This document shows positions 4,920 through 40,047 of a DNA stretch of 40,921 nt, piece after piece. The notes under the pieces were generated by a model. The model was given only the letters and a program-made list of their open reading frames with translations, searched no databases and was not told the DNA's origin. Made by a program: the position numbers and the translations under genes. Source of the DNA: Candidatus Magasanikbacteria bacterium RIFOXYC2_FULL_40_16 (GTDB lineage: Bacteria > Patescibacteriota > Patescibacteriia > Magasanikbacterales > UBA922); assembly GCA_001783185.1 (NCBI GenBank), contig MFQY01000042.1, positions 553-41,473 on the forward strand, written 5' to 3'. Positions within the stretch are counted from its first letter, which is position 1; each line of letters begins with the position of its first letter.

Positions 4920-5120
4920 TGGAGTACATTCTTTCGGAAGAAAGAATAGATATCCCGACTTAGTCGGGATAACAGACATTGATCCTTTCTGGATCAGGAT
5001 TAGTAGACGTTTTTTACCCCGTAGTGAGCTTTGCTCTACTACTGGGCAATTGTCTTTATCACATTTATGGTGTGGAACCATGCGCCACAAGGGTGCATGG
5101 CTAAAAATACCTGAATTTTA

Positions 5121-5354: not shown

Positions 5355-5464
5355 TTTTTTTAAAATCACTTGACCCCCACACTATGTATAATGTAAGATG
5401 TAGCATATAACATGTGCATTACTAAATGTTTTCATGTTTTAATGTTTTAATGTTTAAATGTTTT

Positions 5465-6010
5465 ATGTCACTCAATCGTCTAATCAATCTAGCCAGAAGG
5501 ACGGGGGATAGGCTAATAGTTCATCAGCCTGAAAAAGGCGAGGATATTGTAATTATGGATGTTGATGAATATGAGTTGCTTTTGAATGAAAGACGTGATG
5601 TCAGAAATTTATCTGATAAGCAATTGCTTGACCAAATTAATCGTGATATTGCCATTTGGCGGGCTAATGAAAAACTTGAGGAAGATGAGGATTTTTCTGA
5701 TTTCAGCGAGAAAGAGGATGATAATTGGTTTAGCGCCGGCAGTGTTTTAGGTGGTCGTTTTGGTGAGTCGGAAGAGGACATGCTTGAAGAAGAGGACGAA
5801 GAGATTGAGGATATGGATGGATTTTTTGATTTGAATGAGGTGGAAGGGGACGTTTTTCCGGAAGTTGAAACCAATAAAAATGCTGAAGAATTAGCCAAAA
5901 ATGAAGAACCAAAGATAATACACGAGAGACCGATCGGGAGCAGTGATGAAATTTGGGAAGAGGAGTCTTTAGGTGGTGACGAGCCGGTTTTTTATGAAGA
6001 GCCGGTTTGA
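5465..6010 (+). CDS. Hypothetical protein: Phd/YefM-like N-terminus and very acidic C-terminal tail
   Basis: Start placed at ATG 5465 after a TGTTTTAA array; LINLARRTGDRLIV...IVIMDVDEYELLL pattern; D/E-rich remainder. Confidence 0.7.
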   Translation: MSLNRLINLARRTGDRLIVHQPEKGEDIVIMDVDEYELLLNERRDVRNLSDKQLLDQINRDIAIWRANEKLEEDEDFSDFSEKEDDNWFSAGSVLGGRFGESEEDMLEEEDEEIEDMDGFFDLNEVEGDVFPEVETNKNAEELAKNEEPKIIHERPIGSSDEIWEEESLGGDEPVFYEEPV

Positions 6011-6058
6011 CACCTGACCACTTTACCACCTGACCACTTGACTACTTGAGCACTCAAC
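6011..6058. repeat. Octamer tandem array (CACTTGAC-like x6)
   Basis: CACCTGAC CACTTTAC CACCTGAC CACTTGAC TACTTGAG CACTCAAC; reverse complement family of the GTGGTCAA array in trmD (806-841). Confidence 0.8.
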
Positions 6059-8291: not shown

Positions 8292-9056
8292 ATGAAATTT
8301 ATTCTTGGTACAAAAATTGGAATGACGCAATTGTTTCGAAAAGATGGAACAGTAGTTCCGGTTACTCGCGTTAACGCGGGTCCTTGCGTTGTTGCCCAAG
8401 TTAAAACAGACAAGAAGGATAATGTTAATTCTATTCAGGTTGGTTTTTTTGAACAAAAGAAATTTCGTCTAAATAAAGCGGAACAGGGTCATTTAAAAGA
8501 TTTACCAAGCGTAAGAATACTTAGAGAATTTAGAAGCGAAAATGAAGTCGGTCTTAAAAGAGGTGATAAATTTACCGTGGAAACCTTTGCGCCGGGTGAA
8601 AAAGTAAAGGTAACAGGCTGGTCAAAAGGAAAAGGTTTTCAAGGTGTAGTTAAAAGACATCATTTCCGAGGCGGTCCCGCTTCTCATGGTCATAAAGATA
8701 ATTTGCGTATGCCGGGAAGTATTGGAGCCGGCGGAGTGCAAAGAGTATTTAAAGGAATGCGCATGGCTGGTCATATGGGCGATGCTCAAGTTTCTATAAA
8801 TAATTTGGAAATAATTGAGGTTTTTCCGGAAGAGAATATTCTCGCGATTAAAGGCGCTGTACCGGGAGCTAAAGGAAGTTTGTTATTGATTTCTACTCCT
8901 GAAGGGGATATTAAAGTAGAAGTTGAAAAATCGAAAAAAGAAGTTGAGCCCACAGGTGAGGGAACACTCATCCCGATTTCACATCGGGACGAAATCCCGA
9001 CCGATGCCGAGAAAGTAAAAGAAGAAGCGCCGGTTGGGGCTGAAGAAAAAAAATAA
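8292..9056 (+). CDS. rplC: 50S ribosomal protein L3 with acidic C-terminal extension
   Basis: GTKIGMTQ, SKGKGFQGVVKRH, GPASHG, MAGHMG, KGAVPG. Confidence 0.97.
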   Translation: MKFILGTKIGMTQLFRKDGTVVPVTRVNAGPCVVAQVKTDKKDNVNSIQVGFFEQKKFRLNKAEQGHLKDLPSVRILREFRSENEVGLKRGDKFTVETFAPGEKVKVTGWSKGKGFQGVVKRHHFRGGPASHGHKDNLRMPGSIGAGGVQRVFKGMRMAGHMGDAQVSINNLEIIEVFPEENILAIKGAVPGAKGSLLLISTPEGDIKVEVEKSKKEVEPTGEGTLIPISHRDEIPTDAEKVKEEAPVGAEEKK

Positions 9057-9084
9057 TAAATTAATGATGACAGATTTAAAAAGT

Positions 9085-9717
9085 ATGGCAAAAGCAGTGA
9101 TCTACAATATTCAAGGCAAAGAAAGTGGTTCAATTGAATTGAATGATGAGGTTTTTGGCGTTAAATCAAAAATGTCAGTGATTCATCAAGTTTATCTTGC
9201 TTTGATGGCCAATGCTCGCGAACCTTGGGCTCATACAAAAAATAAGGGCGAGATTCGCGGTGGCGGAAAAAAACCTTGGAAACAAAAAGGCACCGGTAGA
9301 GCGCGTCATGGATCTATTCGTTCACCGATTTGGCGAGGTGGCGGCGTGACATTTGGTCCTTTGAATATCAGAAATTATAAACAAAAAGTTAATAAAAAAA
9401 CAAAAAGGACTGCCGTGCGTATGTGTCTTTCCGATAAGGTTGTTGATGGTAAATTTATTGTGTTGGAAACTTTGCCTACAGACGGCAAAACAAAAGCCAT
9501 AGCGCAATTACGCGCGATATTGCCGGGTTTGAAAAAGACTACTTTGTTGGTGACGCCAAAAAATGATGAGACAATACAAAGAGCGACTAACAATATTCCT
9601 ATGTTGGATTTACAGACAGCGTCAGATATAAATGTAATTGATTTGTTACATCATCAGTATGTTATAACGACAAAAGACGGTGTAAAGGAATTAGAACAGA
9701 GATTAAACAAAGATTAA
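9085..9717 (+). CDS. rplD: 50S ribosomal protein L4
   Basis: GGGKKPWKQKGTGRARHGSIRSPIWRGGG; start at ATG 9085. Confidence 0.96.
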   Translation: MAKAVIYNIQGKESGSIELNDEVFGVKSKMSVIHQVYLALMANAREPWAHTKNKGEIRGGGKKPWKQKGTGRARHGSIRSPIWRGGGVTFGPLNIRNYKQKVNKKTKRTAVRMCLSDKVVDGKFIVLETLPTDGKTKAIAQLRAILPGLKKTTLLVTPKNDETIQRATNNIPMLDLQTASDINVIDLLHHQYVITTKDGVKELEQRLNKD

Positions 9718-9730
9718 ATAAATAAACTTT

Positions 9731-9816
9731 GCGGTAAGAGTCGCAGTAGACCAACGGGATCCTTCGCTCGGTCGCTTCACTCCCAACCGCTCAGGATGAC
9801 AAATTTATATAGTATG
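9731..9816 (+). repeat. Ribosomal-operon leader repeat, copy 1 (before rplW)
   Basis: AGACCAACGGGATCCTTCGCTCGGTCGCTTCACTCCCAACCGCTCAGGATGACAAATTTATATAGT-ATG. Confidence 0.9.
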
Positions 9817-10275
9817 GGTTTACTTGATAAGCTAAAAAAGAAAGATAAAATTGAAAAAGAAACAGATTCAAAAAAATCTGCTGATGTTAAAGTTGAAGAA
9901 AAAAAGAAAGATAAAATTGAAAAAGAAACAATCAAGAAACCGGAAGTGAAAAAGGAAGAAAAAACAGCAAGCAAAACCAATCCGTTGAGCCATATCTCAA
10001 ATAAGATATTGGTTAAACCGTTAATCAGTGAAAAAGCGGCGATTGGCGAACAGGAAGGGCTTTATGTTTTTGTCGTTAGCAAAGACGCTAATAAATATCA
10101 AATAAAAGAAGCGGTAAAGGAAGTTTATGGAGAGACGCCGGAGAAAATCAGAGTGGTAAATGTTGAAGGCAAGAGAACTTATGGTGGAAAAAGAGAGGGT
10201 AAAAGACAGGACTGGAAAAAAGCATTTGTGAAAATGCCAAAAGGCAAAACTATTAATATTCATGAAGGTGTTTAA
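9814..10275 (+). CDS. rplW: 50S ribosomal protein L23 with long Lys/Glu-rich N-terminal extension
   Basis: KPLISEKA, YVFVV, ANKYQIKEAV, WKKAFV; lies between rplD and rplB. Confidence 0.93.
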   Translation: MGLLDKLKKKDKIEKETDSKKSADVKVEEKKKDKIEKETIKKPEVKKEEKTASKTNPLSHISNKILVKPLISEKAAIGEQEGLYVFVVSKDANKYQIKEAVKEVYGETPEKIRVVNVEGKRTYGGKREGKRQDWKKAFVKMPKGKTINIHEGV

Positions 10276-10278
10276 AAT

Positions 10279-11124
10279 ATGGGAATAAAGATATACAAAC
10301 CAACTACCCCGGGAAGACGTAAAGCAAGCGTCCAGGATTTTTCTGATATCACAAAAAAACATCCGGAGAAAAGTCTTACTGTGATCTTGAAAAAGAATTG
10401 CGGCCGTAATAATACCGGCAGAATTACTGTCAGACACCAAGGTGGCGGATCTAAAAGACTTTACAGAATAGTTGATTTTAAAAGACAAAATTTTGATGTC
10501 GCGGGAGAAGTGATTGCGATTGAATACGATCCTAATCGCGGTTCAAGAATTGCTTTAGTTTTGTTTACAGATAATACAAAATCATATATTATTGCCGCGG
10601 AAGGAATGAAAGTGGGCGATAAAGTATTATCTTCTCAAAAAAAGATTGAAGCGGTTCCGGGAAACAGAATGCCGTTAAAATATATTCCTGTAGGTTTATT
10701 TATTTATAATATTGAATTAACCCCGGGTAAAGGCGGACAAATCGTCAAAGGCGCCGGCACTGCGTCACAGTTACAAGTATTTGAAGCCGGTATGGCGCAG
10801 TTGAAGCTTCCGTCAGGAGAAATAAGAATGGTCAGCGAGGATTGCGCTGCCACTGTTGGTAGAATAAGCAATCCGGATTTCAAATTAGTTAGATTGGGTA
10901 AAGCCGGCAGAATGAGACACAAAGGAATAAGACCAACCGTAAAAGGAAAAAATATGAACCCGGTTGATCACCCGCATGGTGGTGGAGAAGGTCACAGTCC
11001 GATCGGTCTTAAAGGCGGTCCAAAGACCCCTTGGGGCAAGAAGGCTCTTGGTGTTAAGACAAGACAAAGAGGCAAATGGAGTGATAAGTTTATAGTTAAG
11101 AGAAGAAGAGGAAAAAATAATTAA
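10279..11124 (+). CDS. rplB: 50S ribosomal protein L2
   Basis: [36 protein letters not shown]. Confidence 0.99.
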
Positions 11125-11134
11125 TTAATTTTAT

Positions 11135-11455
11135 ATGTCAAGAAGTTTAAAAAAAGGCCCTTATACTGATGAAAAGTTGATGAAAAAGGTCAAAAAAGCG
11201 CTGGCTACAGGCGACAAGAAATCAATAAAAACTTGGGCGCGCGCGTCTACTATTACTCCGGAAATGGTGGGTCTTTCTTTTGCCGTGCATAACGGAAGAG
11301 ACTTTTTGAATGTTTATGTTGATGAAAATATGGTTGGACATAAACTGGGTGAGTTTTCTTTGACAAGAAAATTTGTAAAACATGGTGGTAAGATGCAGAA
11401 AGCGCAGGAAAAGGAAGAAAACGCCGCCCCTGCTGTCCCCGCTAATAATAAATAG
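11135..11455 (+). CDS. rpsS: 30S ribosomal protein S19
   Basis: [25 protein letters not shown]. Confidence 0.98.
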
Positions 11456-11466
11456 ACTGATTTAAT

Positions 11467-11973
11467 ATGGATAAATTACAAACAAAAGCGACAATAAAAG
11501 GACTGAGAGTGGCTCCAAGGAAAGTCCGTCTGCTGATTGACCTTATTCGCGGTATGCAAGTTGATAGAGCTATTGAACAGCTGGAAATTTCAAAAAAAGA
11601 CGCTGCTCGCGAAGTTCTTAAATTATTGAAATCAGCGATAGCCAATGCTCGACATAATCATCAATTAAAGACAGAAACTTTGGTAATCAAAATTGCTTTT
11701 GTTGATGGTGGAGCGACTTTACACCGATGGACGCCTAGAGCTATGGGCAGAGCAACCCCGATCAGAAAAAGAACCGCTCATGTTACTTTAATTTTGGAAG
11801 GCGAGGTTGATGAAAAGGCGGTTAAGAAAGTTTCCACCAAAGGCGGATCCGCCTCTGGCGGAAAGGTTGGTAAAGAACTAGTTAAAAAAGAAAAAAAAGA
11901 AATTGAAGAAATAAAAGGAGAAAATACTGATGTTAAGACCTCGACAACCAAGAAGGCAAAAAATAAAAAATAA
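11467..11973 (+). CDS. rplV: 50S ribosomal protein L22 with charged C-terminal extension containing a palindrome insert
   Basis: APRKVRLLIDLIRG, KSAIANA, PRAMGRA. Confidence 0.96.
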   Translation: MDKLQTKATIKGLRVAPRKVRLLIDLIRGMQVDRAIEQLEISKKDAAREVLKLLKSAIANARHNHQLKTETLVIKIAFVDGGATLHRWTPRAMGRATPIRKRTAHVTLILEGEVDEKAVKKVSTKGGSASGGKVGKELVKKEKKEIEEIKGENTDVKTSTTKKAKNKK

Positions 11974-11999
11974 ATAATTAAGTAAACAGATTATAATTT

Positions 12000-12698
12000 A
12001 TGGGACATAAAGTTCATCCAAGAATTCACAGAATACAAGTTATATACACTTGGGATTCAAGATGGTTTGGAAAGAAAAAATATGCTAAGTATGCGGAACA
12101 GGATGTAAGCATCCGTGAATTTTTGATGAAAAAATTTAAAGACGCCCATATTGATTCTATCGGTGTTGAAAGAGGACCGAAGAATATGACAGTTACGGTA
12201 TTTGCGGCCAAGCCGGGATTTATTATTGGTCGGGGCGGACAAGGTCTTGAAGATTTGAGAAAAGAAATTGAAAGAAAATATTTACAAATGTCTTTAAAAG
12301 TTAAATTGAATATTCAGGAAGTTCATTCACCGGCTTTGTCAGCTTCTGTGATTGCGCAGACTGTTGCCGCTGAAATTGAAAAACGCATGCCTTTCCGCAG
12401 GGTGATGAAACAATCAATTGAAAAAGTTATGAAAGCGGGCGCGCAAGGCGTGAAGATTTGTTTGTCAGGCCGTTTGAACGGAGTTGACATTGCGCGTACG
12501 GAAAAATTATCGGCCGGAAAAGTGCCGTTAATCACGCTTAGAAGCGATGTTGATTATTGTCTGTATGAGGCTAACACCACTTATGGCAAGATTGGCGTGA
12601 AAGTGTGGGTTTATCATGGAGAAATTTTTGGAAGAAAAGATAAATTTAGCAAGACGGAAGAGCCGGAAAGCAAAGAAAATAAAGAAAAAAGAAAATAA
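12000..12698 (+). CDS. rpsC: 30S ribosomal protein S3
   Basis: MGHKVHP, KPGFIIGRGG, SGRLNGVDIAR, TTYGKIGVKVW. Confidence 0.98.
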   Translation: MGHKVHPRIHRIQVIYTWDSRWFGKKKYAKYAEQDVSIREFLMKKFKDAHIDSIGVERGPKNMTVTVFAAKPGFIIGRGGQGLEDLRKEIERKYLQMSLKVKLNIQEVHSPALSASVIAQTVAAEIEKRMPFRRVMKQSIEKVMKAGAQGVKICLSGRLNGVDIARTEKLSAGKVPLITLRSDVDYCLYEANTTYGKIGVKVWVYHGEIFGRKDKFSKTEEPESKENKEKRK

Positions 12699-12707
12699 TA
12701 ATTTTAT

Positions 12708-13118
12708 ATGTTATTGCCAAAAAAAGTAAAACATAGAAAATGGCACAAGCCAAGAAGGAATAACAAAGGTGTTGCGACAAGAGCAAATACCGTGGCTTTT
12801 GGCAGTTTTGGTCTTAAATCAATGGATAACGCCTGGGTTACATCAAGACAAATTGAATCCGCGCGCCGTGTTTTAACAAGATATGTCAGACGTGGAGGTA
12901 AAATTTGGATTCGTATTTTTCCTGATAGACCGGTTACAACCAAAGGCAACGAAATGCCTATGGGAAAAGGCAAAGGTACGCCAGATCATTATGTTTGCAC
13001 TGTAAAACCGGGTACTGTTATGTTTGAAATGGCCGGAGTTTCGGATGATAAAGCAGTAGAGGCTTTAGTATTGGCAGGGCATAAATTACCTCTAAAAGCT
13101 AAAGTTGTTAAGAAATAA
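12708..13118 (+). CDS. rplP: 50S ribosomal protein L16
   Basis: MLLPKKVKHRK, QIESARR, KIWIRIFPD, MGKGKG. Confidence 0.98.
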   Translation: MLLPKKVKHRKWHKPRRNNKGVATRANTVAFGSFGLKSMDNAWVTSRQIESARRVLTRYVRRGGKIWIRIFPDRPVTTKGNEMPMGKGKGTPDHYVCTVKPGTVMFEMAGVSDDKAVEALVLAGHKLPLKAKVVKK

Positions 13119-13129
13119 ATTAATGATGT

Positions 13130-13324
13130 ATGGATATCAATGAAATCAAAAATAAATCTATAAAAGATTTAAAAGAATTATTGGAAGAAAAAAGAGGAAA
13201 ATTGCGCGATATGCGTTTTAATGTAAGTAGCGCGCAGATAAAGAATGTCAGGGATTTAAGAAAAAATAGAAAAGATATCGCTCAGATTTTGACATTAATA
13301 AATACGCAAAATAAAGAAGTTTAA
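13130..13324 (+). CDS. rpmC: 50S ribosomal protein L29
   Basis: 64 aa, RKDIAQILT, located after rplP. Confidence 0.92.
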   Translation: MDINEIKNKSIKDLKELLEEKRGKLRDMRFNVSSAQIKNVRDLRKNRKDIAQILTLINTQNKEV

Positions 13325-13340
13325 TTAAAATAATCCAATT

Positions 13341-13438
13341 GAGTGGAAAGAGCAGAAACAGACCAACGAGATCCCTCGCTCGGTCATCCCGACTTAAAGT
13401 CGGGACTCCCGACCGCTCGGGATGACAGATTTTATATG
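13341..13438 (+). repeat. Leader repeat copy 2 (before rpsQ) with nested TCCCGACTTAAAGTCGGGA hairpin
   Basis: AGACCAACGAGATCCCTCGCTCGGTC[ATCCCGACTTAAAGTCGGGA]CTCCCGACCGCTCGGGATGACAGATTTTAT-ATG. Confidence 0.9.
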
Positions 13439-13708
13439 AATACTAAAAAAAGTGAAACAACTAAAAAGGAAGTTACACGCCGACAGTTTGAAGGTGAGGT
13501 GGTTAGCGTTGTGGAAAATAAGACTATTCATGTATTGGTTAAGACAAAGAAAATGCATCCTAAATACAAGAAGCAGTATCTTACACACAAAAAATACGCT
13601 GTCCACGATGAGGCTAATACGGCAAAAGTTGGTGATGTGGTTTTGTTTCAGGAGTGCAGACCGATTAGTAAGACAAAAAAGAATAGATTAATAAAAGTAA
13701 TAAAATAA
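13436..13708 (+). CDS. rpsQ: 30S ribosomal protein S17
   Basis: [24 protein letters not shown]; start at ATG 13436. Confidence 0.96.
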
Positions 13709-13720
13709 TTAAGTGTATCC

Positions 13721-13830
13721 GCGCGGTAAGAGCAGAGCAAAACAACGGGATCCCTTCCCGCCATCCGGCGGGACAGGCCGTTCGGTCGCTCCGCTTCCAA
13801 CCTCTCGGGATGACAAATTTAAATGGTATG
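13721..13830 (+). repeat. Leader repeat copy 3 (before rplN) with nested TCCCGCCATCCGGCGGGA hairpin
   Basis: CAACGGGATCCCT[TCCCGCCATCCGGCGGGACAGGC]CGTTCGGTCGCTCCGCTTCCAACCTCTCGGGATGACAAATTTAAATGGT-ATG. Confidence 0.9.
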
Positions 13831-14199
13831 ATTCAACACAGATCAATGTTAAAAGTAGCGGATAATACAGGCGCGAAAAAGCTGATGTGCATTCGTGTGC
13901 TTGGTGGTTACAAAAAAAGATATGCGCAACTTGGCGACATAATTACTTGTTCTGTAAAGGAAGCCGTACCTCATGGTATGGTAAAGAAGAGTGAAATTGT
14001 TCATGCTGTTATTGTGCGTCAAAGAAAAGAGAAAAGAAGAAAAGACGGCACATATATAAGATTTGATGAAAATGCGGTTGTGATTATCAATAAGAAAGAC
14101 AAAGAACCGAAAGGGACGCGTATTTTTGGACCGGTTGCCCGCGAATTGCGCGCTAAAGGATATAAAAAGATTATTTCTCTGGCTCCGGAAGTGCTTTAA
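13828..14199 (+). CDS. rplN: 50S ribosomal protein L14
   Basis: [39 protein letters not shown]. Confidence 0.99.
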
Positions 14200-14299
14200 A
14201 TAGGCATTAGCTGTCAGAATATATAGGGATTAGTCATTATTAAATATTATTAAAAATATAACTAAATATTCTAAACGCTAAACCCTAATTGCTAAAAAT

Positions 14300-14617
14300 A
14301 TGAAAATAAAAACAGGGGACAATGTAAAAGTATTAAGTGGAAGAGATCGCGGTAAAACCGGCAAGGTTATTCAGGTTTTGAAATCTAAGAAAAACGGTCA
14401 AAATTATGCGGTTGTTGAGGGTGTTAATTTGAGAAAGAAACATCTTAAAACACGAAAGGCCGGAGAAAAAGGGCAAACGATTGAATTATCTTTTCCGATT
14501 CATATCAGCAATGTAATGGTTATTGATTCAAATACAAAAAAGACAACCAGAGTAGGGTATAAAGTGGAAGGCAAAGAGAAGAAAAGAATTTCAAAAAAAA
14601 GCGGTGAATTTATATAA
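14300..14617 (+). CDS. rplX: 50S ribosomal protein L24
   Basis: IKTGDNVKVLSGRDRGKTG, VEGVN, PIHISNV. Confidence 0.97.
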   Translation: MKIKTGDNVKVLSGRDRGKTGKVIQVLKSKKNGQNYAVVEGVNLRKKHLKTRKAGEKGQTIELSFPIHISNVMVIDSNTKKTTRVGYKVEGKEKKRISKKSGEFI

Positions 14618-14723
14618 AAGTTTATAGCCAATAGTTCATAGCCAATAATTTGATAAAATGCGATATAAGTGAACTAAGTAAAGTAACCTATTGGCTATTG
14701 GCTCCGAACTAATAACTATTATT
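14618..14723. repeat. Spacer with inverted heptamer arms (TAGCCAA/TAGTTCA ... TTGGCTA/GAACTA)
   Basis: Same family at 16008-16116, 21468-21500, 27613-27696, 40011-40047. Confidence 0.8.
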
Positions 14724-15269
14724 ATGAAATCAGTATTATACCAACAATATAAGAAAGAAATTGTGCCGGCTCTTAAAAAAGAGTTTGGATACAAAAATGT
14801 AATGCAAGTGCCTAAATTGGAAAAGGTGGTTATTAATGTTGGTTATGGAAAACACGCAAAAGAAAAAAATTATGTTGAACACGTGGAAAAAGTTTTGTCG
14901 GCGATTTCCGGACAGAAGCCGATTCATAATAAATCAAAAAAATCCATTTCAAATTTTAAAATCAGGGAAGGGATGAGTATTGGCGCGTCGGTTACTATGC
15001 GTGGTAATAAAATGTATGATTTTGTTTACAAATTGGTAAATGTAACTTTCCCGCGTATCCGCGATTTTCGCGGTATAAATCCGAAAGCTTTTGATCATCA
15101 AGGTAACTATACCGTAGGAATAAAAGAACAGTTAGCCTTTCCGGAAATTACATCAAGCATGGTTGATATAATTCACGGATTGGAAATCACCTTTGTAATT
15201 AAAGGCGGAAATAAAGAGCAAAATTTTTCATTATTAAGCAAGATGGGTTTCCCATTTAGGAATAAATAA
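14724..15269 (+). CDS. rplE: 50S ribosomal protein L5
   Basis: VPKLEKVVINVG, SGQKP, FKIREG, PRIRDFRG; start at ATG 14724. Confidence 0.97.
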   Translation: MKSVLYQQYKKEIVPALKKEFGYKNVMQVPKLEKVVINVGYGKHAKEKNYVEHVEKVLSAISGQKPIHNKSKKSISNFKIREGMSIGASVTMRGNKMYDFVYKLVNVTFPRIRDFRGINPKAFDHQGNYTVGIKEQLAFPEITSSMVDIIHGLEITFVIKGGNKEQNFSLLSKMGFPFRNK

Positions 15270-15287
15270 ATAATTAATAAAATAATC

Positions 15288-15375
15288 GAGCAATAAGAGC
15301 AGAATTAGACCAACGAGATCCCTCGCTCGGTCGCTCCGCTCCCAACCGCTCGGGATGACAGATTTTAAATGTATG
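15288..15375 (+). repeat. Leader repeat copy 4 (before rpsN), closest to consensus
   Basis: AGACCAACGAGATCCCTCGCTCGGTCGCTCCGCTCCCAACCGCTCGGGATGACAGATTTTAAATGT-ATG. Confidence 0.9.
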
Positions 15376-15558
15376 GCAACTCAAGGACAAATAGCAAAAT
15401 CAAAAAGAAAACCGAAATTTAGCACTAGAATTGTTAGACGTTGTTGGAAATGCGGAAGAAAAAGAGGCTATATTAGGCACTTTAATTTATGCAGAATTTG
15501 TTTTAGAGAACTGGCTAACGAAGGCAAGTTGCCCGGGGTAAGGAAGTCAAGCTGGTAA
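15373..15558 (+). CDS. rpsN: 30S ribosomal protein S14, Zn-binding type Z
   Basis: RCWKCGR...[10 protein letters not shown]...PGVRKSSW, 61 aa. Confidence 0.97.
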
Positions 15559-15562
15559 TAAC

Positions 15563-15600
15563 CATTAAAACATAAAAACATTAAAACATAAAAACATTTA
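15563..15600. repeat. Octamer array CATTAAAA/CATAAAAA
   Basis: Same array near 22765-22800 and 24191-24213; reverse complement at 5426-5464. Confidence 0.75.
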
Positions 15601-15612
15601 GAAAATTATATT

Positions 15613-16002
15613 ATGATGACAGATCCAATCGCAGACATGTTAACACGCATAAGAAACGCGCAAGCAGTTGGCAAAAAAACTGTTGATTTAGCTTTTTCCA
15701 AATTGAAAATGAGCATCAGCAAGATTTTGGTTGAGGAAGGCTATATTAATAAAGCGGAAAAAGTTGACAGCAATCCGCCGGTTTTGAGATTGGAACTGAA
15801 ATATATCGGTAAAAATCCGGCTATACAGTCTATTAAGCGCGACAGCACGCCTGGACACAGAAAATATTGTAAATCAGATGAATTACCTAAAGTTTTGAAT
15901 GATTATGGTATCGCTATTCTCTCCACTTCAAAAGGGCTGATGACAAATAAACAGGCTAGAAAAGAGTCGGTTGGAGGAGAATTAATCTGTTCAGTATATT
16001 AA
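15613..16002 (+). CDS. rpsH: 30S ribosomal protein S8
   Basis: MTDPIADMLTRIRNA, EEGYI, ILSTSKG, GGELIC. Confidence 0.98.
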   Translation: MMTDPIADMLTRIRNAQAVGKKTVDLAFSKLKMSISKILVEEGYINKAEKVDSNPPVLRLELKYIGKNPAIQSIKRDSTPGHRKYCKSDELPKVLNDYGIAILSTSKGLMTNKQARKESVGGELICSVY

Positions 16003-16116
16003 TTAACAAGTTTATAGCCAATAGTTCATAGCCAGTAGATTTAAGAGAAAAAGGCGAAAGAACTAAATAAATTAACAAACTGTTGGCTCAGAACTATGAA
16101 CTAAGAACTATTATAT

Positions 16117-16665
16117 ATGTCACGTATAGGCAAACAAATTATAGCAATTCCAAGCGGGGTAGAGGTCTCTGTAAAAGAAGGCAAAGTTTTTGTTAAAGGA
16201 CCAAAAGGCCAATTGGAGCGTGAACTGCACAAATTGGTTACTGTTAATATCACTGATAATAAAGTTACGGTTGATGTTGTAAATAAAGAATCAAAATTAG
16301 AAAGATCCCTTTGGGGCACATTTGCCGCTCATATAAAAAATATGGTGCTGGGTGTAACTAAAGGATTTAAGAAACAACTGGAAATAAACGGCGTAGGTTA
16401 TAAAGCTGCCATGCAGGGCAAAGATTTGAAGCTTGATGTTGGTTATTCCAATCCGGTAATTTATAAGATTCCGGAGAAAGTAACCGCTTCCGTGGAGAAA
16501 AATATGATTAGTTTGGAGAGCGCGGATAAAGAATTGTTGGGCAAAGTCGCCTCAGAAATAAGAGTTATTCGAAAACCTGAACCTTATAAAGGCAAGGGAA
16601 TTAAGTATGTTGAAGAAACCATCAGACGTAAAGCCGGCAAATCAGCTGCTAAAGCGGCCGCATAA
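16117..16665 (+). CDS. rplF: 50S ribosomal protein L6
   Basis: MSRIGKQ, VKGPKG, GVGYKA, RKPEPYKGKGI. Confidence 0.98.
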   Translation: MSRIGKQIIAIPSGVEVSVKEGKVFVKGPKGQLERELHKLVTVNITDNKVTVDVVNKESKLERSLWGTFAAHIKNMVLGVTKGFKKQLEINGVGYKAAMQGKDLKLDVGYSNPVIYKIPEKVTASVEKNMISLESADKELLGKVASEIRVIRKPEPYKGKGIKYVEETIRRKAGKSAAKAAA

Positions 16666-16679
16666 ATTAATATTATTTT

Positions 16680-17048
16680 ATGAGAAATATAAAAACAATC
16701 AAAAAAAGCAGACGACACGCCAGGATAAGGGCGATGCTTTCCGGTACAGCCGAAAGGCCGAGATTACATGTATCCAAAACTTTAACCGGGCTTTATTTGC
16801 AATTGATTGATGATAATGCCGGTAAAACTCTTGCGAGCGTAAACAGTAAAAAAGATTTGCCGAAAAAAGGAGATGCCGGTGAGAGAAAAGCTAAAGTGGC
16901 GCAAAGTTATTTGCTGGGCAAAGTTTTAGCTGAAAAAGCATTGGCTGCGGGAATTAAAGCGGCAGTATTTGACAGAGGAGGAAACCGATATCATGGAAGA
17001 GTAAAAGCGGTAGCGGAAGGCGCGAGAGATGGAGGACTTGAATTTTAA
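16680..17048 (+). CDS. rplR: 50S ribosomal protein L18
   Basis: GTAERPRL, FDRGGNRYHGRVKAVAEGAR. Confidence 0.98.
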   Translation: MRNIKTIKKSRRHARIRAMLSGTAERPRLHVSKTLTGLYLQLIDDNAGKTLASVNSKKDLPKKGDAGERKAKVAQSYLLGKVLAEKALAAGIKAAVFDRGGNRYHGRVKAVAEGARDGGLEF

Positions 17049-17088
17049 TAATTAAACATAATCCGAATCGGATTATAATATTTGAAGT

Positions 17089-17670
17089 ATGGAAAAGAGA
17101 AAAGGTAAAGGCAGAGGAAAATTCAAAAAAGAAAAACCGGAGTTTGATCAGCAGATTGTTGATTTAGCCCGTGTTACTCGTGTCACAAAAGGTGGAAAGC
17201 AACTTAGCTTTCGCGCTTGTGTTGTGATAGGCAACCGAAAAGGCAGAGTTGGTTATGGTGTTAAGAAAGGAAAAGATGTTCAGATTGCGGTGGATAAAGC
17301 GGTTAATCAGGCAAAGAAATATATGATTACTGTGCCGATTAACAGAGGTACCATACCGCACAGAGTGGAAGCTAAATACGGCGCAGGCAGAGTTTTGATT
17401 AAACCGGCCCCGCTTGGTTCCGGTATTATTGCCGGCAGTTCCGTCAGAATCGTTTTGGAACTTGCGGGCGTACCAAATGCTTCAGCTAAGATTATGAGTA
17501 AAACAAATAATAAAATTACCAATGTAAAGGCTGTGTTTGAAGCATTGCAGAAGTTTAAACCATTGAGATTTAAAAAGTTTATTAAGAAGGATGAAGTCAA
17601 AACCGAGGAAAAAACGGAAGTTAAAAAACCGTTCACAAAGAAAAAAGAAAATAAAATAGATAATAAATAA
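17089..17670 (+). CDS. rpsE: 30S ribosomal protein S5
   Basis: RVTRVTKGGK, GRVGYG, KPAPLGSGIIAG. Confidence 0.98.
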   Translation: MEKRKGKGRGKFKKEKPEFDQQIVDLARVTRVTKGGKQLSFRACVVIGNRKGRVGYGVKKGKDVQIAVDKAVNQAKKYMITVPINRGTIPHRVEAKYGAGRVLIKPAPLGSGIIAGSSVRIVLELAGVPNASAKIMSKTNNKITNVKAVFEALQKFKPLRFKKFIKKDEVKTEEKTEVKKPFTKKKENKIDNK

Positions 17671-17680
17671 TAAATTAACC

Positions 17681-17780
17681 TGGTGGCAAGGGTAGCGATA
17701 GACCAACAAGATCCTTCGCTCGGTCGTCCCGACTAAGTCGGGACTCCCAACCGCTCAGGATGACAGATTATAAAGTTATG
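17681..17780 (+). repeat. Leader repeat copy 5 (before rplO, at the usual rpmD position) with nested GTCCCGACTAAGTCGGGAC hairpin
   Basis: AGACCAACAAGATCCTTCGCTCGGTC[GTCCCGACTAAGTCGGGA]CTCCCAACCGCTCAGGATGACAGATTATAAAGTT-ATG. Confidence 0.9.
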
Positions 17781-18221
17781 GTTATAAATTTACATACAAT
17801 TAAACCTGCCCACGGGTCAAGGAAAAGAAGTAAAAGAGTTGGCCGTGGCAATGCCTCTCAAAAAGGGACTACTGCCGGACGCGGTATGAAAGGTCAGAAA
17901 GCCCGTTCAGGCGGAAAAAAAGGTTTGGCGGTTAAGGGTTTTAAGAAATCATTTCAAAAAGTACCTAAGGTGCGTGGTTTTAGAAGTCAAAAACCGAAAA
18001 AACAAACTGTAACTTTATCAATTTTGGAAAGAATCGCAAAAAATGGCGATGTGGTGACCCCTAGATATTTAAACAAAAAGGGTGTAATAGATAATTCACA
18101 GAGCGGGGTAAAAGTGGTGGCCACAGGCGAATTAAAGAAAAAAATTACTTTAAGCGGTTGTGTTGCCAGCAAAAAAGCGGTTGAAGCTATTGAAAAAGCC
18201 GGTGGAAAACTAGAGTTTTAG
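17778..18221 (+). CDS. rplO: 50S ribosomal protein L15
   Basis: KRVGRG, TAGRGMKGQKARSG, AIEKAGG. Confidence 0.96.
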   Translation: MVINLHTIKPAHGSRKRSKRVGRGNASQKGTTAGRGMKGQKARSGGKKGLAVKGFKKSFQKVPKVRGFRSQKPKKQTVTLSILERIAKNGDVVTPRYLNKKGVIDNSQSGVKVVATGELKKKITLSGCVASKKAVEAIEKAGGKLEF

Positions 18222-18247
18222 GTTTTGGCTATTAAATAATTTATCTT

Positions 18248-18334
18248 GGTGATTAAGGTTGTGTTAAACCAACGAGATCCCTCGTTCGGTCGTTTCACTC
18301 CCGACCACTCGGGATGACAAATTTAAAAGGTATG
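18248..18334 (+). repeat. Leader repeat copy 6 (before secY)
   Basis: ACCAACGAGATCCCTCGTTCGGTCGTTTCACTCCCGACCACTCGGGATGACAAATTTAAAAGGT-ATG. Confidence 0.9.
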
Positions 18335-19600
18335 TGGGAAAAATTAAGAAAAATTTGGAATGTAAAAAGTTTAAGAAATAGCATACTATATGTACTTGGT
18401 ATGCTTATTATTTTTCGTTTGGTGGCGCATATCCCGATGCCGGGAATTGATCGGGAAGCATTAAGCGGATTTTTAGCGGGGAATCAAATTCTTGGTCTTT
18501 TAAATGTGTTTTCCGGCGGGACGATTGAGAATTTTTCTTTAGTAATGATGGGTATTGCTCCATACATCACATCTTCCATTATATTTCAGTTGTTGACAAT
18601 GGTGGTGCCGAGTTTGGAGGAATTATCAAAAGAAGGTGAGTCAGGACAGCAAAAAATAAACATGTATACCCGTATAACGACTGTGCCATTGGCGCTTTTG
18701 CAAGCTTATGGTTTTATAAAATTATTGAATAACTCGCAACAGGGTATGTTGGGTGATTTGACAACGGTCAGATTGGCGTCAATGATGTTGTTTGTCACCG
18801 CGGGTACAATATTTTTGATGTGGATCGGCGAATTAATTACAGAAAAGAAAATCGGTAATGGAATCTCGTTGCTTATCTTTGCCGGTATAGTTGCTTCATT
18901 GCCAACAGCGATAAGAAATGCGGTTGTAAATTACAATCCGTCTGATTTGACGACCTATTTGTTGTTTGCGGGAATTGCGGTTGCGACAATAATTGGAGTT
19001 GTTATTATAAATGAAGGACAAAGAAATATTCCAATCAGTTATGCCAAACAGGTTCGTGTTGGGCAAGGCGGGGCGAAAAGTCATTTGCCGCTTCGCGTTA
19101 ATATGGCCGGAGTTATTCCGATTATCTTTGCCATTTCAATCGTTTTATTTCCTTCAATGGTGGCGCAATTTTTTGCCGGTAATCAGGGATGGTTGGGAAG
19201 AGTGGCGATTAGCACAATAAATTTGTTTCAGAATCAATTATTTTACGGAATGATTTATTTCTTATTGGTATTTGGTTTTACATATTTTTATACGGCGGTT
19301 ATTTTCAATCCGGAAAAGATCGCGGAAAATCTACAAAGACAAGGTGGTTTTATACCGGGTATTCGCCCGGGAAAACAGACGGAAGAATATTTACAAAAAA
19401 CAATGACCCGTTTGGTATTTGTTGGCGCTTTATTTTTAGGCGCGATTGCGGTTCTCCCGCTTCTTATGCAGTTGGTGACGAATTCTCAGGCGTTGGTGTT
19501 TGGCGGCACGAGCCTTTTGATCGTAGTAAGTGTGGCAATAGAGACAACCAAACAAATTGATTCTCAGCTTACGGTTCATGAATACGACGGAATTAAATAA
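18332..19600 (+). CDS. secY: Preprotein translocase subunit SecY
   Basis: MGIAPYITSSII, WIGELIT, GNGISLLIFAGI, AGVIPIIFA, FIPGIRPG, GGTSLLIVV. Confidence 0.98.
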   Translation: MWEKLRKIWNVKSLRNSILYVLGMLIIFRLVAHIPMPGIDREALSGFLAGNQILGLLNVFSGGTIENFSLVMMGIAPYITSSIIFQLLTMVVPSLEELSKEGESGQQKINMYTRITTVPLALLQAYGFIKLLNNSQQGMLGDLTTVRLASMMLFVTAGTIFLMWIGELITEKKIGNGISLLIFAGIVASLPTAIRNAVVNYNPSDLTTYLLFAGIAVATIIGVVIINEGQRNIPISYAKQVRVGQGGAKSHLPLRVNMAGVIPIIFAISIVLFPSMVAQFFAGNQGWLGRVAISTINLFQNQLFYGMIYFLLVFGFTYFYTAVIFNPEKIAENLQRQGGFIPGIRPGKQTEEYLQKTMTRLVFVGALFLGAIAVLPLLMQLVTNSQALVFGGTSLLIVVSVAIETTKQIDSQLTVHEYDGIK

Positions 19601-20637: not shown

Positions 20638-21462
20638 ATGTATATCAAAAAAGATGAAGAAATAAAAAAGATAATTGAAGGGGGCAAAATTATCGGGAGT
20701 ATTTTGGAAGAGCTGTCAAAAATGGTAAAGCCCGGCATTAGTGCGTTGGAAATAGATATACAAGCTGAAAAATTAATTATAAAAGCGGGGGGGAAGCCCG
20801 CTTTTAAAGGTTATAAATCGCATCCGAAAGACTTGCCGTTTCCGACGACGATTTGCGCTTCTCTTAATGAGGAAATCGTTCACGGCATTGCGACCAAGCA
20901 AAAGATTTTGAAAGAAGGCGATATTTTTAGTATTGATATTGGGATGGAATGGCCGGTTGGCAAGATACAAGATACAAACAACAAGAAACAGAAGGGTTAC
21001 TTTACTGATACGGCAGTGACAGTAATTGTGGGAAACGTCCCGGAGAAGGTTAAACAGTTATTGAATGTAACAAAAAATGCCTTGGAGATCGGAATAGAAC
21101 AATGCCAGGCTGGTAATAATATTTCTGATATTGGCAAGGCGATTGAGAATTATGTAAAACCGTTTGGCTACGGTATTGTCCGCGATTTGGTCGGCCACGG
21201 CGTCGGTCATGCGGTCCATGAAGAACCGCGCGTACCTAATTTTTATGATAAAGAAGTGGAGTCTTGGAGGCTTGAACCGGGAGTGGTAATCGCGATTGAG
21301 CCGATGATTACTTTGGGAGGACATGAAATAAAAACCGCCGAAGATGGCTGGAGCATATCTACCGCTGACAACAGTTTAAGCGCCCATTTTGAGCATACGG
21401 TTATTATCACGGAAAATGGACCGATAGTGGCGACACGCCGGCCGAGCGAAATAAATAATTAA
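20638..21462 (+). CDS. map: Methionine aminopeptidase type I
   Basis: SLNEEIVHG, DIG..GYFTD, GHGVGHAVHEEP, IEPMI, SAHFEHT. Confidence 0.97.
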   Translation: MYIKKDEEIKKIIEGGKIIGSILEELSKMVKPGISALEIDIQAEKLIIKAGGKPAFKGYKSHPKDLPFPTTICASLNEEIVHGIATKQKILKEGDIFSIDIGMEWPVGKIQDTNNKKQKGYFTDTAVTVIVGNVPEKVKQLLNVTKNALEIGIEQCQAGNNISDIGKAIENYVKPFGYGIVRDLVGHGVGHAVHEEPRVPNFYDKEVESWRLEPGVVIAIEPMITLGGHEIKTAEDGWSISTADNSLSAHFEHTVIITENGPIVATRRPSEINN

Positions 21463-21490
21463 TCAATCTACTGGCTAAGAACTATTGGCT

Positions 21491-21856
21491 ATGAACTATT
21501 TAGGTATCGATTACGGCAAAAAGCGCATTGGTTTAGCCTGGGTCCAAGAAGGTTTGGATGTAGTTTTGCCATTTGGGGTGGTAAAAGATATTGATGAACT
21601 GGCTAAACTGATTAAAAAAGAAAAAATTGATAAAATAGTTGTTGGTCTGCCAATCGGATTGGATGGAAAAGAAAATGAAAACACAAGGCGGGTAAAAAAG
21701 TTTGCCGATGAATTAAAAAATAAAATTAATTTACCGATCGAGTTTGAAGATGAGAGGTTTTCTTCAAGACAGGCCGATAGTATGGGCGGGGATGTCAGTC
21801 GTGATGAAAAAGCGGCGATGGTTATTCTTTCCAGTTATCTGGAAAGAATAGGATAA
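21491..21856 (+). CDS. ruvX: RuvX/YqgF family RNase H-like nuclease
   Basis: LGIDYGKKRIGLA, VVGLP, DERFSS, DEKAAMVIL. Confidence 0.92.
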   Translation: MNYLGIDYGKKRIGLAWVQEGLDVVLPFGVVKDIDELAKLIKKEKIDKIVVGLPIGLDGKENENTRRVKKFADELKNKINLPIEFEDERFSSRQADSMGGDVSRDEKAAMVILSSYLERIG

Positions 21857-22778: not shown

Positions 22779-22899
22779 AACATAAAAACATTAAAACATA
22801 TTTTTGCTAAATAGGTTCTTGTCAAGCGTCTAGAAAAGTGGTATTGTTGTAATAATTCAAAATAAATACTTAATACATAATACTAAATACTTAATACTT

Positions 22900-24189: not shown

Positions 24190-24220
24190 TCATAAAAACA
24201 TTAAAACATTAAAATAAACG

Positions 24221-27612: not shown

Positions 27613-27696
27613 TAGTTCACAGCCAATAGTTCATAACCAATAGTTTATTTTTATTCAAATTATTGGCTATTGGCTCCGAACTATTAACTATAATAT

Positions 27697-39972: not shown

Positions 39973-40047
39973 ATATTTTTATTAAATTTAATTTATATTT
40001 TTATTTATGTTTTACTATTGGCTCTGAACTATGAACTATTGGCTATT

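Follow-up and report, generated by a model that had tools for sequence, protein, structure and literature searches.

A short non-coding cassette stands directly before about 18 housekeeping genes in this 970-kb genome (G000), in 14 full and four short copies, and all 18 copies lie in sense orientation and adjoin a start codon. We lean towards reading the cassette as a mobile or duplicative non-autonomous repeat that is kept at start codons, where it would present stems followed by an unpaired AU-rich initiation region.

Copies, position and orientation

The window, the whole 40,921-nt stretch of DNA analysed here, contains six full cassettes and a remnant upstream of rplD, all on the + strand. 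The first-pass annotation had described a consensus common to six spacers, and the alignment bears this out, with 47 invariant columns and 65 % mean column identity. The solo 3′ module GATGACAGATTTAAAAAGT (9066–9084) precedes the rplD ATG at 9085; it lacks the upstream stem, is matched by the model only at an E value of 0.17 and is either a remnant or a minimal form. Full cassettes of the short form precede rplW (9731–9813, ATG 9814; 5′ extension, core and 12-nt tail; 77.6 bits), rpsN (15290–15372, ATG 15373; 85 bits; nearest to the consensus) and secY (18248–18331, ATG 18332; 80.8 bits). The full cassettes of rpsQ (13343–13435, ATG 13436; 89.3 bits, fold z −3.76) and rplO (17683–17777, ATG 17778; 93.8 bits, fold z −2.73) carry an apical nested hairpin (TCCCGACTTAAAGTCGGGA and TCCCGACTAAGTCGGGA, respectively), and that of rplN (13723–13827, ATG 13828; 50.9 bits) carries a 23-nt hairpin, TCCCGCCATCCGGCGGGACAGGC, inside its 5′ arm.

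The ATG of the ATGACA motif falls, as originally noted, at 9067, 9796, 13810, 15355, 17760 and 18314, in each case 18 nt upstream of and in frame with the gene ATG (9085, 9814, 13828, 15373, 17778 and 18332), and the six N-terminal peptides are the same as those first written down; the gap of 14 nt given for rpsQ (13422 to 13436) was also recovered. The ORF list places the starts of rplW, rplN, rpsN, rplO and secY at the upstream ATGs. The rpsQ cassette has an 8-nt tail and an out-of-frame upstream ATG whose TGA stop overlaps the gene start (ATGA). Repeat, pattern and model searches agree that the window holds no further copy, as had been stated. The cassettes do lie in the ribosomal protein cluster, but they are not confined to it, since 11 copies (eight full and three short forms) are found on other contigs.

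A covariance model run against the genome returned 14 matches of 50.9 to 93.8 bits, the next match scoring 27.4 bits. A pattern for the core without its tail returned 13 sites, and downstream of every one an ORF of at least 40 codons begins with its ATG at d = 14 to 20, where d is the spacing from upstream ATG to gene ATG; of the 18 copies, 14 have d = 18 and the other four have 14 or 20. Scanned genome-wide, orientation and distance to the start codon are not random, in keeping with the first-pass annotation, and the pattern is far beyond chance.

The cassettes are 65 to 105 nt long, have no frame open across all copies and are 69 to 92 % identical to one another within the genome (median 81 %). 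Each copy stands singly; no tandem arrays were seen, and a direct-repeat search found no tandem family. From their translated N-termini, we take eight of the downstream genes to encode L4, L23, S17, L14, S14, L15, SecY and L36; the others encode S4, S7, AtpC, SecD, GreA, RecA, a ferredoxin, a cyclophilin, a GT4 glycosyltransferase and an NTP transferase. Before rplD, greA, recA and the ferredoxin gene, the 3′ module is retained with the stems lost or replaced. Neighbours in the same operon that lack a cassette include rplB, rpsS, rplV, rpsC, rplP, rpmC and others.

Architecture, predicted folding and initiation context

The cassette comprises an outer stem (AUCCY/RGGAU), an inner stem (CGGUCG/CGACCG), optional nested hairpins and, after the stems, a conserved AU-rich tail (GACARAUUUWAAAUGU). 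TCGGTC and GGATGACA persist as invariant blocks despite the divergence between copies, and GGAUGACA is likewise conserved. Nested hairpins add inserts of 12, 14 or 23 nt, those of 23 nt standing at differing places in different copies. The ATCCC/GGGAT arms first seen by eye are real and their closing pair covaries, being C-G in eight and U-A in five of 14 rows (the 14th is misaligned); in 77 distinct modules of relatives, the outer-stem closing pair is C-G in 40, U-A in 33, U-G in one and C-A in three. Across the alignment, 90.4 % of cells pair, compared with 24 to 52 % when the partners are slid. In 13 of the 14 copies, the minimum-energy fold leaves the tail and the AUG unpaired, and most folds place the A and U of the GGATGACA ATG in outer-stem pairs.

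A fold z of −2 or below was obtained for eight of 14 sense copies compared with five of 14 antisense copies, and short forms fold no better than shuffles (z of 0.48 for rpsN, 1.11 for rplW and 0.09 for rpsD). An inner-stem C-A mismatch occurs on the sense strand in five of 14 copies, where the antisense strand would read G-U. Because of these mismatches, and because U-G is not commoner than C-A in the outer stem, the pairing may reflect a DNA-level palindrome rather than RNA structure. On contig C65, a different hairpin, TGTCATTCCCGC...GCGGGAATGACA, stands with a similar tail before another gene (d = 16).

No Shine–Dalgarno (SD) signal was detected upstream of 701 ORF starts, where G reaches at most 17 % at every position from −25 to −1, in line with the scarcity of SD motifs remarked on earlier; nor did the cassette tails contain a GGAGG-like motif. 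GT occupies positions −2/−1 at 43 of the 701 general starts compared with 13 of 18 cassette tails, so the tail is not merely native context. In a consensus scan, none of the cassettes contained a promoter-like or terminator-like site on the + strand; promoter-like sites numbered 29 in 9.4 kb, compared with 25.2 ± 4.4 in shuffles, and none lay at a cassette. At gathering thresholds, the only Rfam matches in the window were 16S rRNA and one tRNA, and a search of positions 9000–18400 up to E = 5 gave no relevant match. The genome encodes RNase Y, RNase III and RMMBL (RNase J-like) domains; no RNase E/G was detected.

Distribution among relatives and the wider repeat family

Among the secY loci of 80 relatives (1.35 Mb), nhmmer returned no cassette match at E ≤ 1e-3, and across 60 relative genomes the top model score was 34.2 bits, compared with at least 50.9 for the 14 copies in G000. 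In the nearest relative (locus L010, SecY 86 % identical), the secY spacer is 17 nt long (script measurement) and has no cassette, and in the comparison with empty spacers suggested at first pass all seven of its orthologous spacers were short and cassette-free. Metagenome contigs carry 12 identical copies and 11 further cores before other genes. In sister strains, cassettes precede genes that, judging by their first residues, are presumably rpsC (L178 and L180), groES (L133) and rpsN (L167); rpsC carries a cassette in L178 and L180 and none in G000. Between L178 and L180, 298 of 300 nt upstream and all 67 nt compared downstream match, but only 84 of 95 nt do so across the stretch holding the cassette, where all 11 differences fall inside the unit, several in the tail. 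This concentration suggests that the unit, tail included, was exchanged or replaced. On the sequences compared, the cassette is lineage-restricted, and with copies only 69 to 92 % identical its spread is probably not very recent; TCGGTC, GGATGACA and similar invariant blocks could mark host-level function instead.

Of 107 family genomes, 53 contain a broader pattern, GATCCYTC...YCRGGATGACA, and none contains its reversed control. This family-wide repeat often forms inverted pairs, TGTCATCC...GGATGACA, 90 to 280 nt apart, resembling terminal inverted repeats. It has no general tie to start codons, and the GGATGACA ATG is also conserved in many members that precede no gene. Judged by its sequence, the cassette is a specialised subfamily of this inverted-repeat and hairpin family ending ...GGATGACA, which has spread through Magasanikbacteria. 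The same genome also holds composite arrays of ~300 nt.

The cassette resembles a MITE in being small, non-coding and multicopy and in having both filled and empty sites among relatives. It has a right-hand terminus only, the left-hand inverted terminus being absent, and a TGTCATTGCGAGG-type sequence lies upstream of only two copies, both on contig C8. A target-site duplication is not clear-cut: by eye, an ARA direct repeat of 3 to 5 nt can be placed at both ends of five of the seven 5′-extended copies, with boundaries unfixed in AT-rich, diverged spacers. Among the matches listed, no autonomous element of insertion-sequence size had these ends. Searches for the Y1_Tnp domain (PF01797) gave no match in G000 (86 % complete) and a match in only one of four repeat-rich relatives (G091), which had no flanking modules, so that this search linked no transposase or RAYT to the cassette.

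Interpretation and comparison with known repeats

Under the mobile-repeat reading, the repeat would multiply by transposition or site-to-site copying, and its copies would land in AT-rich spacers directly 5′ of start codons, in sense orientation only. The cassette would most likely be co-transcribed with its gene as a modular mRNA leader, in which GC-rich stems followed by a single-stranded tail would leave the true AUG exposed in an organism without an SD signal; such exposure would allow the cassette to be tolerated before essential, highly expressed genes. It may also help the gene by keeping structure further upstream from interfering with the initiation region, or serve as a 5′ stem shielding the downstream cistron from RNase J after RNase Y cleavage. 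Two of the options in the first-pass annotation, a portable initiation or processing module and a mobile element targeting start codons, both fit and are partly supported by the empty sites in the nearest relative, the differing genes occupied in sister strains, the divergence of L178 and L180 inside the cassette and the lack of an SD signal, and together they form the best reading; a third, a shared 6-aa N-terminal tag, is disfavoured by the upstream ATG being out of frame in four of 18 copies.

Selection by the host offers a different and, in our view, rather unlikely account, in which a single trans-acting factor, be it protein, ribosome or small RNA, would bind TCGGTC, GGAUGACA and the tail as a cis-regulatory RNA or DNA site and so co-regulate a housekeeping regulon, the site having spread by selection and recombination, not self-mobility. 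Strict position and orientation agree with this, as do the genes served (nearly all translation, secretion, ATP synthase, recombination or chaperone), the invariant blocks that persist between diverged copies, the 3′ module retained without its original stems and the similar tail behind another hairpin on C65. However, all seven orthologous sites are empty in the nearest relative, sister strains differ in the genes occupied, operon neighbours such as rplB, rpsS and rplV are cassette-free, and the carriers include non-housekeeping genes (GT4 glycosyltransferase, NTP transferase, cyclophilin lipoprotein); variably placed nested hairpins would disrupt a fixed binding site, and no candidate factor was found. 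Ribosomes might alternatively load at the internal AUG of GGAUGACA, yielding a 6-residue extension (MT[DN]xxx) or, when out of frame, a short uORF with termination–reinitiation, which we consider improbable. Of the 18 copies, 14 have the upstream ATG in frame, and the four out-of-frame uORFs (rpsQ, rpmJ, the cyclophilin gene and atpC), which stop after five to eight codons, all end at or a few nucleotides from the true start: ATGA overlaps occur in rpsQ and the cyclophilin gene, the rpmJ TGA ends 2 nt before the ATG and the atpC TAA ends just past it. As stops are frequent in AT-rich sequence, four such stops are weak evidence, and the frame follows from the fixed 12-nt tail with no selection on frame required. 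The same ATG is conserved where family members precede no gene, and its A and U are paired in most folds, whereas the downstream AUG is unpaired. The downstream ATG also suits usual N-termini, S4 and S7 aligning to Pfam profiles from residue 3 and translated L36 beginning MKVRAS, which we take to be the usual L36 start. Hand-over by termination–reinitiation has also been proposed for mycobacterial MIRUs; a review gives these a coupled internal ORF, at −4 nt spacing, where they insert at start codons (PMC12548453).

It seems very improbable that the cassette acts at the DNA level, as an internal promoter, terminator, attenuator or recombination site, and not as an mRNA leader. ATGACA is similar to the −35 hexamer TTGACA, the tail is AT-rich and the palindromy is strand-symmetric; yet, apart from the lack of + strand promoter-like or terminator-like sites in the cassettes, a −10 element 17 nt past ATGACA would sit in the unconserved codons 2 and 3, no U-run directly follows the stem, and six promoters or terminators within 9 kb of ribosomal protein operons are implausible. 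Metagenome assemblies can collapse or mis-join repeats, and the first-pass annotation had named an assembly artefact as grounds for rejecting the pattern. We give an artefact or chimera almost no weight, as short-read contigs assembled independently from other runs cross the cassettes without a single difference (X10 at 12984–13531, 14973–15554 and 17687–18400; X11 at 14185–15592; X12 at 9586–9820, 13258–13452 and 17609–17804), and the 12 identical copies on metagenome contigs also speak against it.

The closest described analogues of the cassette are the mycobacterial MIRUs and Neisseria REP2. MIRUs (mycobacterial interspersed repetitive units) were reportedly described by Supply et al. in 1997. 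They are described as mobile elements whose insertion at start codons does little damage to expression (PMC3184786, PMC12548453), with a coupled internal ORF at −4 nt spacing (PMC12548453). Both elements are short (40 to 100 bp), lie in intercistronic operon spacers oriented with the flanking genes and have filled and empty sites. The ends of the MIRU internal ORF overlap the flanking stop and start, whereas the cassette has no ORF along its full length, any frame being broken by nested hairpins (12, 14 and 23 nt), and ATGA overlaps occur in only two of 18 cassettes. MIRUs also often form tandem arrays, whereas cassettes are single; the two share no sequence similarity and belong to different phyla. 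In N. meningitidis Z2491, REP2 stands before 14 genes (PMC3184786). REP2 and Borrelia IR-A/IR-B resemble the cassette in lying directly upstream of genes, in lacking terminal inverted repeats and in having two internal stem-loops and an initiation region supplied by the repeat (PMC3184786). REP2, however, is 120 to 150 bp long with a reported promoter, ribosome-binding site and ATG, whereas the cassette has no promoter-like site or SD and mostly occurs within operons.

MITEs and REP/REPIN elements (Correia, ERIC, BIME) are likewise small, multicopy, palindromic, intergenic and nested or mosaic, and the wider GATCCYTC...GGATGACA family shares their inverted pairs. Typical ones lie in both orientations, mostly after genes or between convergent genes, whereas the cassette is sense-only, at a start codon in 14 of 14 full copies, with a single terminus and no RAYT or transposase linked to it by the Y1_Tnp search. 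In 5′ stabiliser stem-loops, intercistronic processing in RNase Y/J organisms and synthetic insulators such as RiboJ, a stem-loop is followed by an unstructured initiation region before the AUG. The cassette has this architecture, in a genome with RNase Y, RNase III and RNase J-like domains, as a functional analogy only; it matches no ribozyme or other Rfam family.

A bolder form of the mobile-repeat reading, which we hold to be doubtful, would make the cassette a portable leader that spreads by itself: a mobile module acting at the RNA level, inserted precisely at start codons and bringing an SD-independent initiation signal. That signal, consisting of the stem, GGAUGACA and the 12-nt AU-rich tail, would be recognised by the reduced ribosomes found in candidate-phyla-radiation bacteria, and the cassette's spread in ribosomal protein operons might uncouple and boost translation or stabilise the top-expressed cistrons. 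If so, it would provide a natural handle on start-codon choice in SD-less bacteria and a naturally evolved counterpart of synthetic insulator parts.

Cassette copies across the genome

Within the ribosomal protein cluster, the first-pass annotation had described a cassette (a repeat of 65–105 nt made up of a 5′ extension, a stem core and an AU-rich tail) in which the ATG of an internal ATGACA lies 18 nt 5′ of the gene ATG. Reading the sequence from 8800 to 18600 bore this out for rplD, rplW, rplN, rpsN, rplO and secY, each in frame and with the six hexapeptides as first given; ahead of rpsQ, GATGACA stands 14 nt before the ATG, also as claimed. The repeat finder recovered the known copies (families D1 to D4 and D10) and no additional one within the window, in agreement with that annotation. 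Alignment of the six full window copies gave 47 invariant columns, and a profile of these copies, searched against the whole genome (G000; 970,672 bases, 65 contigs, 40.6 % G+C), added eight full copies (E≤1e-9) to the set, along with four weaker matches (E≤0.1): three short forms and one on contig C9 that adjoins no start codon. A covariance model built from the 14 full copies scored these at 50.9 to 93.8 bits in the genome, the next match reaching 27.4 bits.

With the short forms that precede greA, recA, a ferredoxin gene and rplD included, the total is 18 sites, and the orientation and placement reported for the window hold genome-wide: all 18 are in sense and terminate at a start codon. 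In 14/18 copies the internal ATG lies 18 nt from the gene ATG; the spacing is 14 nt for rpsQ, and 20 nt for rpmJ, the cyclophilin gene and atpC. A pattern lacking the tail (TCGGTC...CYYCCRACC...GGATGACA) found 13 sites in the genome, every one with an ORF start at 14 to 20 nt; the 14th full copy was missed because of a long nested insert. As read from their N-termini, the downstream genes encode L4, L23, S17, L14, S14, L15, SecY and L36; Pfam adds S4, S7, ATP synthase epsilon and a SecD–PPIase fusion, as well as GreA, RecA, ferredoxin, a cyclophilin lipoprotein, a GT4 glycosyltransferase and an NTP transferase. A simple ORF caller put the starts of cassette genes 18 nt too far upstream, and gene callers will do the same, which calls for caution in annotation.

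Assembly artefact, a possibility raised by the first-pass annotation, is contradicted by Logan contigs from other studies' sequencing runs (X10, X11 and X12), which span cassettes with zero differences; 12 copies identical to those of the genome were present on metagenome contigs. Hairpins of 23 nt (TCCCGNC-loop-GNCGGGACAGGC) are nested at varying points among the copies: at the apex in some, within the 5′ or 3′ arm in others. A hairpin of this type, TCCCGACTTAGTCGGGA, also lies at 4952–4968, just past the 3′ end of the 16S rRNA, and CCCGAC...GTCGGG-type hairpins number 93 in the genome.

Gain, loss and turnover among relatives

The secY loci of 80 relatives, each with ribosomal protein cluster sequence of up to 10 kb, returned no nhmmer match at E≤1e-3, and the best covariance-model score among 60 relative genomes was 34.2 bits. 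The nearest relative (L010, SecY 86 % identical) supplies the empty sites for comparison: the spacers before rplD, rplW, rpsQ, rplN, rpsN, rplO and secY all lack the cassette and are short and AT-rich. Together, the null result in the 80 loci and these seven cassette-free spacers rule out a conserved orthologous leader.

On metagenome contigs, the tail-free pattern gave 50 matches in 49 stretches, of which 27 are chance occurrences in GC-rich contigs and 23 are genuine cores in AT-rich contigs (12/23 identical to copies of the genome, 11/23 new). By inspection, an ATG follows all 23 genuine cores at a distance of 12 to 22 nt; the script missed two of these starts, one ORF being cut by the contig end and the other being short. 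N-terminus reading revealed new cassette sites before rpsC (L178 and L180), groES (L133) and rpsN (L167); rpsC carries no cassette in the genome studied here, and the rpsN cassette is common to L167 and this genome. Loci L178 and L180 are identical at 298/300 positions upstream and 67/67 downstream, compared with 84/95 in the cassette window. All 11 differences in that window fall inside the cassette unit, several of them in the tail; the unit turning over thus begins with the 5′ extension and reaches the last base ahead of the ATG.

The tail itself might be merely native upstream sequence, as by our own count the native L010 spacers match it at 9/12 positions before secY, 9/12 before rplD and 8/12 before rplN. 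We reject this as the whole story because the tails of different genes agree better with one another (10 to 11 of 12, by eye), because GT at −2/−1 is found in 13/18 cassette tails and is rare in general starts (43/701), and because the L178 and L180 tails differ between identical flanks. The tail-like L010 spacers may be remnants of lost cassettes.

The cassette is the start-codon subfamily of a wider repeat family, GATCCYTC...YCRGGATGACA, present in 53 of 107 family genomes; the reversed control pattern was found in none of the 107. Copies of the wider-family repeat are often paired in inverted orientation at a spacing of 90 to 280 nt, resembling the ends of small inverted-repeat elements. 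Of the 47 generic modules in the genome, 15 adjoin a start, comprising every full cassette (14) plus the short form at the ferredoxin gene. Among 56 modules sampled without bias from relatives' loci, a sense ORF start lies 2 to 30 nt away in 13 and on the opposite side in six, a bias too weak to extend the start-codon association to the whole family; the strict tie therefore belongs to the subfamily. An earlier count, accepting any ATG, GTG or TTG ORF, gave 12/35 relatives' modules. Covariance-model matches before starts in relatives are a biased sample, since the model includes the tail and ATG. A RAYT/REPIN link was rejected: PF01797 is absent from the genome and, in that of one relative (G091), is present but without a flanking module. 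No autonomous element was found, the transposase search covering PF01797 in this genome and four repeat-rich relatives.

Contigs C2, C9, C12, C13, C20, C22, C27, C29, C36, C41, C49, C52, C56 and C60, all outside the window, together carry about 18 composite arrays of ~300 nt, with nested hairpins, outer inverted repeats (AACTCATAGCGAGTTT) and inner modules (TGTCATTACGAG...CTCGCAATGACAG); one module is common to the arrays and the cassette.

Folding, translational context and neighbouring repeats

The proposed helices leave 90.4 % of cells paired, compared with 24 to 52 % for slid partners, and the pair closing the outer stem in 77 distinct relatives' modules is C-G in 40, U-A in 33, U-G in one and C-A in three. 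The palindromy of the cassette is certain; given the C-A mismatches (on the sense strand, in the inner stem of 5/14 copies) and the alternative pairings, a specific sense-strand RNA fold is putative, and the pairing may operate in RNA or in DNA. Measured against shuffled sequences, folding energy reached z≤−2 in 8/14 sense copies vs 5/14 antisense copies. A single defined RNA fold was rejected, as short-form z values lie near 0 (rpsN 0.48, rplW 1.11 and rpsD 0.09) and three pairings compete: AUCCC/GGGAU with the inner stems, GUCGUCCCGA/UCGGGAUGAC, and the 5′ extension with GCUCCCAACCGC. In the minimum-energy fold, the tail and true AUG are unpaired in 13/14 copies.

The 3′ end of the 16S rRNA retains the anti-Shine–Dalgarno (anti-SD) CCUCC, the loss of which is described for part of the Parcubacteria (PMC9297842). 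Across 701 ORF starts, the share of G stays at or below 17 % throughout positions −25 to −1, and T makes up 73 % at −1; this scarcity of G indicates that SD motifs are not used. Pairing of the cassette with the 16S 3′ end is, by eye only, at chance level. A consensus scan detected no promoter-like or terminator-like site in any cassette, which led us to reject a promoter or terminator reading. Known ribozymes, r-protein leaders and tRNA-like elements were likewise rejected: there is no relevant Rfam match over 9000–18400, even at E≤5, and at gathering thresholds the whole window yields only 16S rRNA and one tRNA. Genes for RNase Y, RNase III and two proteins with RMMBL (RNase J-like) domains are present in the genome (86 % complete), where no RNase E/G was detected. 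In organisms with an RNase Y/III/J toolkit, a 5′ stem shields a processed cistron from 5′ exonuclease.

The rplO–secY spacer is at least 60 nt long in 31/79 relatives, and 20 of these 31 fold at z≤−2, with sequences that are unrelated by eye. Structured inserts immediately before start codons may thus be a general trait of the lineage. Loci L011, L012, L014, L048, L050, L068, L069 and L079 have unrelated hairpin-forming repeats of their own in this spacer, that of L048 being a GGATCC...GGATGACA hairpin 12 nt 5′ of the secY ATG. Outside the window, on the + strand of contig C65 (ATG ~22968), a different hairpin, TGTCATTCCCGCGACTGCGGGAATGACA, and an AT-rich tail of 10 nt stand ahead of an ORF start, at a distance of 16 nt; the arrangement hairpin–ATGACA–tail–ATG thus recurs with another stem.

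Further repeats were observed in the window. A second family occupies spacers before rplE, rplF and other genes (14608–14723, 15998–16115, 21449–21503, 27603–27695 and 39989–40050), with inverted sets of ~7-nt units (TATAGCCAATAGTTCATAGCCAATA ... TATTGGCTATTGGCTCCGAACTA) reaching to a few nt before the ATG, and is reminiscent of the heptamer direct repeats known from intergenic regions of Beggiatoaceae (PMC4679880). An AT-rich repeat with 8-nt periodicity, AACATTAAAACATAAAAACATT (families D5, I1 and I2; 15560–15606, 22762–22800 and 24188–24218, inverted at 5419–5465), occupies the pre-rpsH spacer and recurs elsewhere on both strands. GC-rich palindromes lie within the C-terminal extensions encoded by the 3′ parts of rplV (11831–11864) and rplC (8960–9000). 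The rplV palindrome (GGCGGATCCGCC core) shows a depth spike of 84 to 840, compared with ~8 in adjacent bins, in 4/4 metagenome runs, so it is a widely shared repeat within coding sequence. Inverted octamer runs of the AGTGGTCA type (804–841 and 6011–6054; family I5), 92 % complementary over 37 nt, flank the 16S rRNA gene (3331–4918) and may form a long-range processing stem or represent another repeat family.

A repeat proposed to be kept at start codons

The best-supported reading is that the cassette is a non-autonomous repeat that multiplies within the lineage and is kept only directly 5′ of start codons, in sense. We propose that it persists only there because it would bring a working initiation region with it, namely stems followed by an exposed AU-rich tail. 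The host may gain insulation, uncoupling from the upstream cistron and 5′ protection. A shared 6-aa N-terminal tag, another option of the first-pass annotation, is disfavoured because four copies are out of frame, because family members with no gene behind them conserve this ATG too, and because the A and U of the internal ATG pair in the stem. In these four out-of-frame copies, the short ORF from the internal ATG stops at or beside the true start, so upstream-ORF coupling, which would link that ORF to the true start, keeps a small probability. The main rival to a repeat retained at start codons is a regulon-type binding site.

Repeats placed exactly at start codons are uncommon, the described cases being MIRUs and Neisseria REP2. 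MIRUs are intercistronic repeats of 40 to 100 bp with filled and empty sites and ORFs overlapping the flanking genes, and the REP2 repeats of Neisseria and IR repeats of Borrelia directly precede genes and bring along a promoter, RBS and ATG, as described in PMC3184786. The review PMC12548453 places MIRU insertions at start codons, with a coupled internal ORF at a spacing of −4 nt. By analogy, the cassette would resemble both in its manner of working; however, unlike MIRUs, it has no through-ORF and forms no tandem arrays, and, unlike REP2 and IR, it carries neither promoter nor SD. Given this likeness without the defining features, we file it as a variant of start-codon-adjacent intergenic repeats. 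A titles-level search of the literature on CPR translation initiation, MITEs and REPs found no description of such repeats in the phylum.

The cassette occupies the cell's most conserved operons, and the organism retains an anti-SD yet has no SD motifs upstream of its genes. If the cassette acts on translation or mRNA stability, it would be a small natural system in which to study how uncultivated bacteria carry out SD-independent initiation and intercistronic processing; if it is merely tolerated, it still marks the places in which a streamlined genome of 1 Mb can take up selfish DNA.
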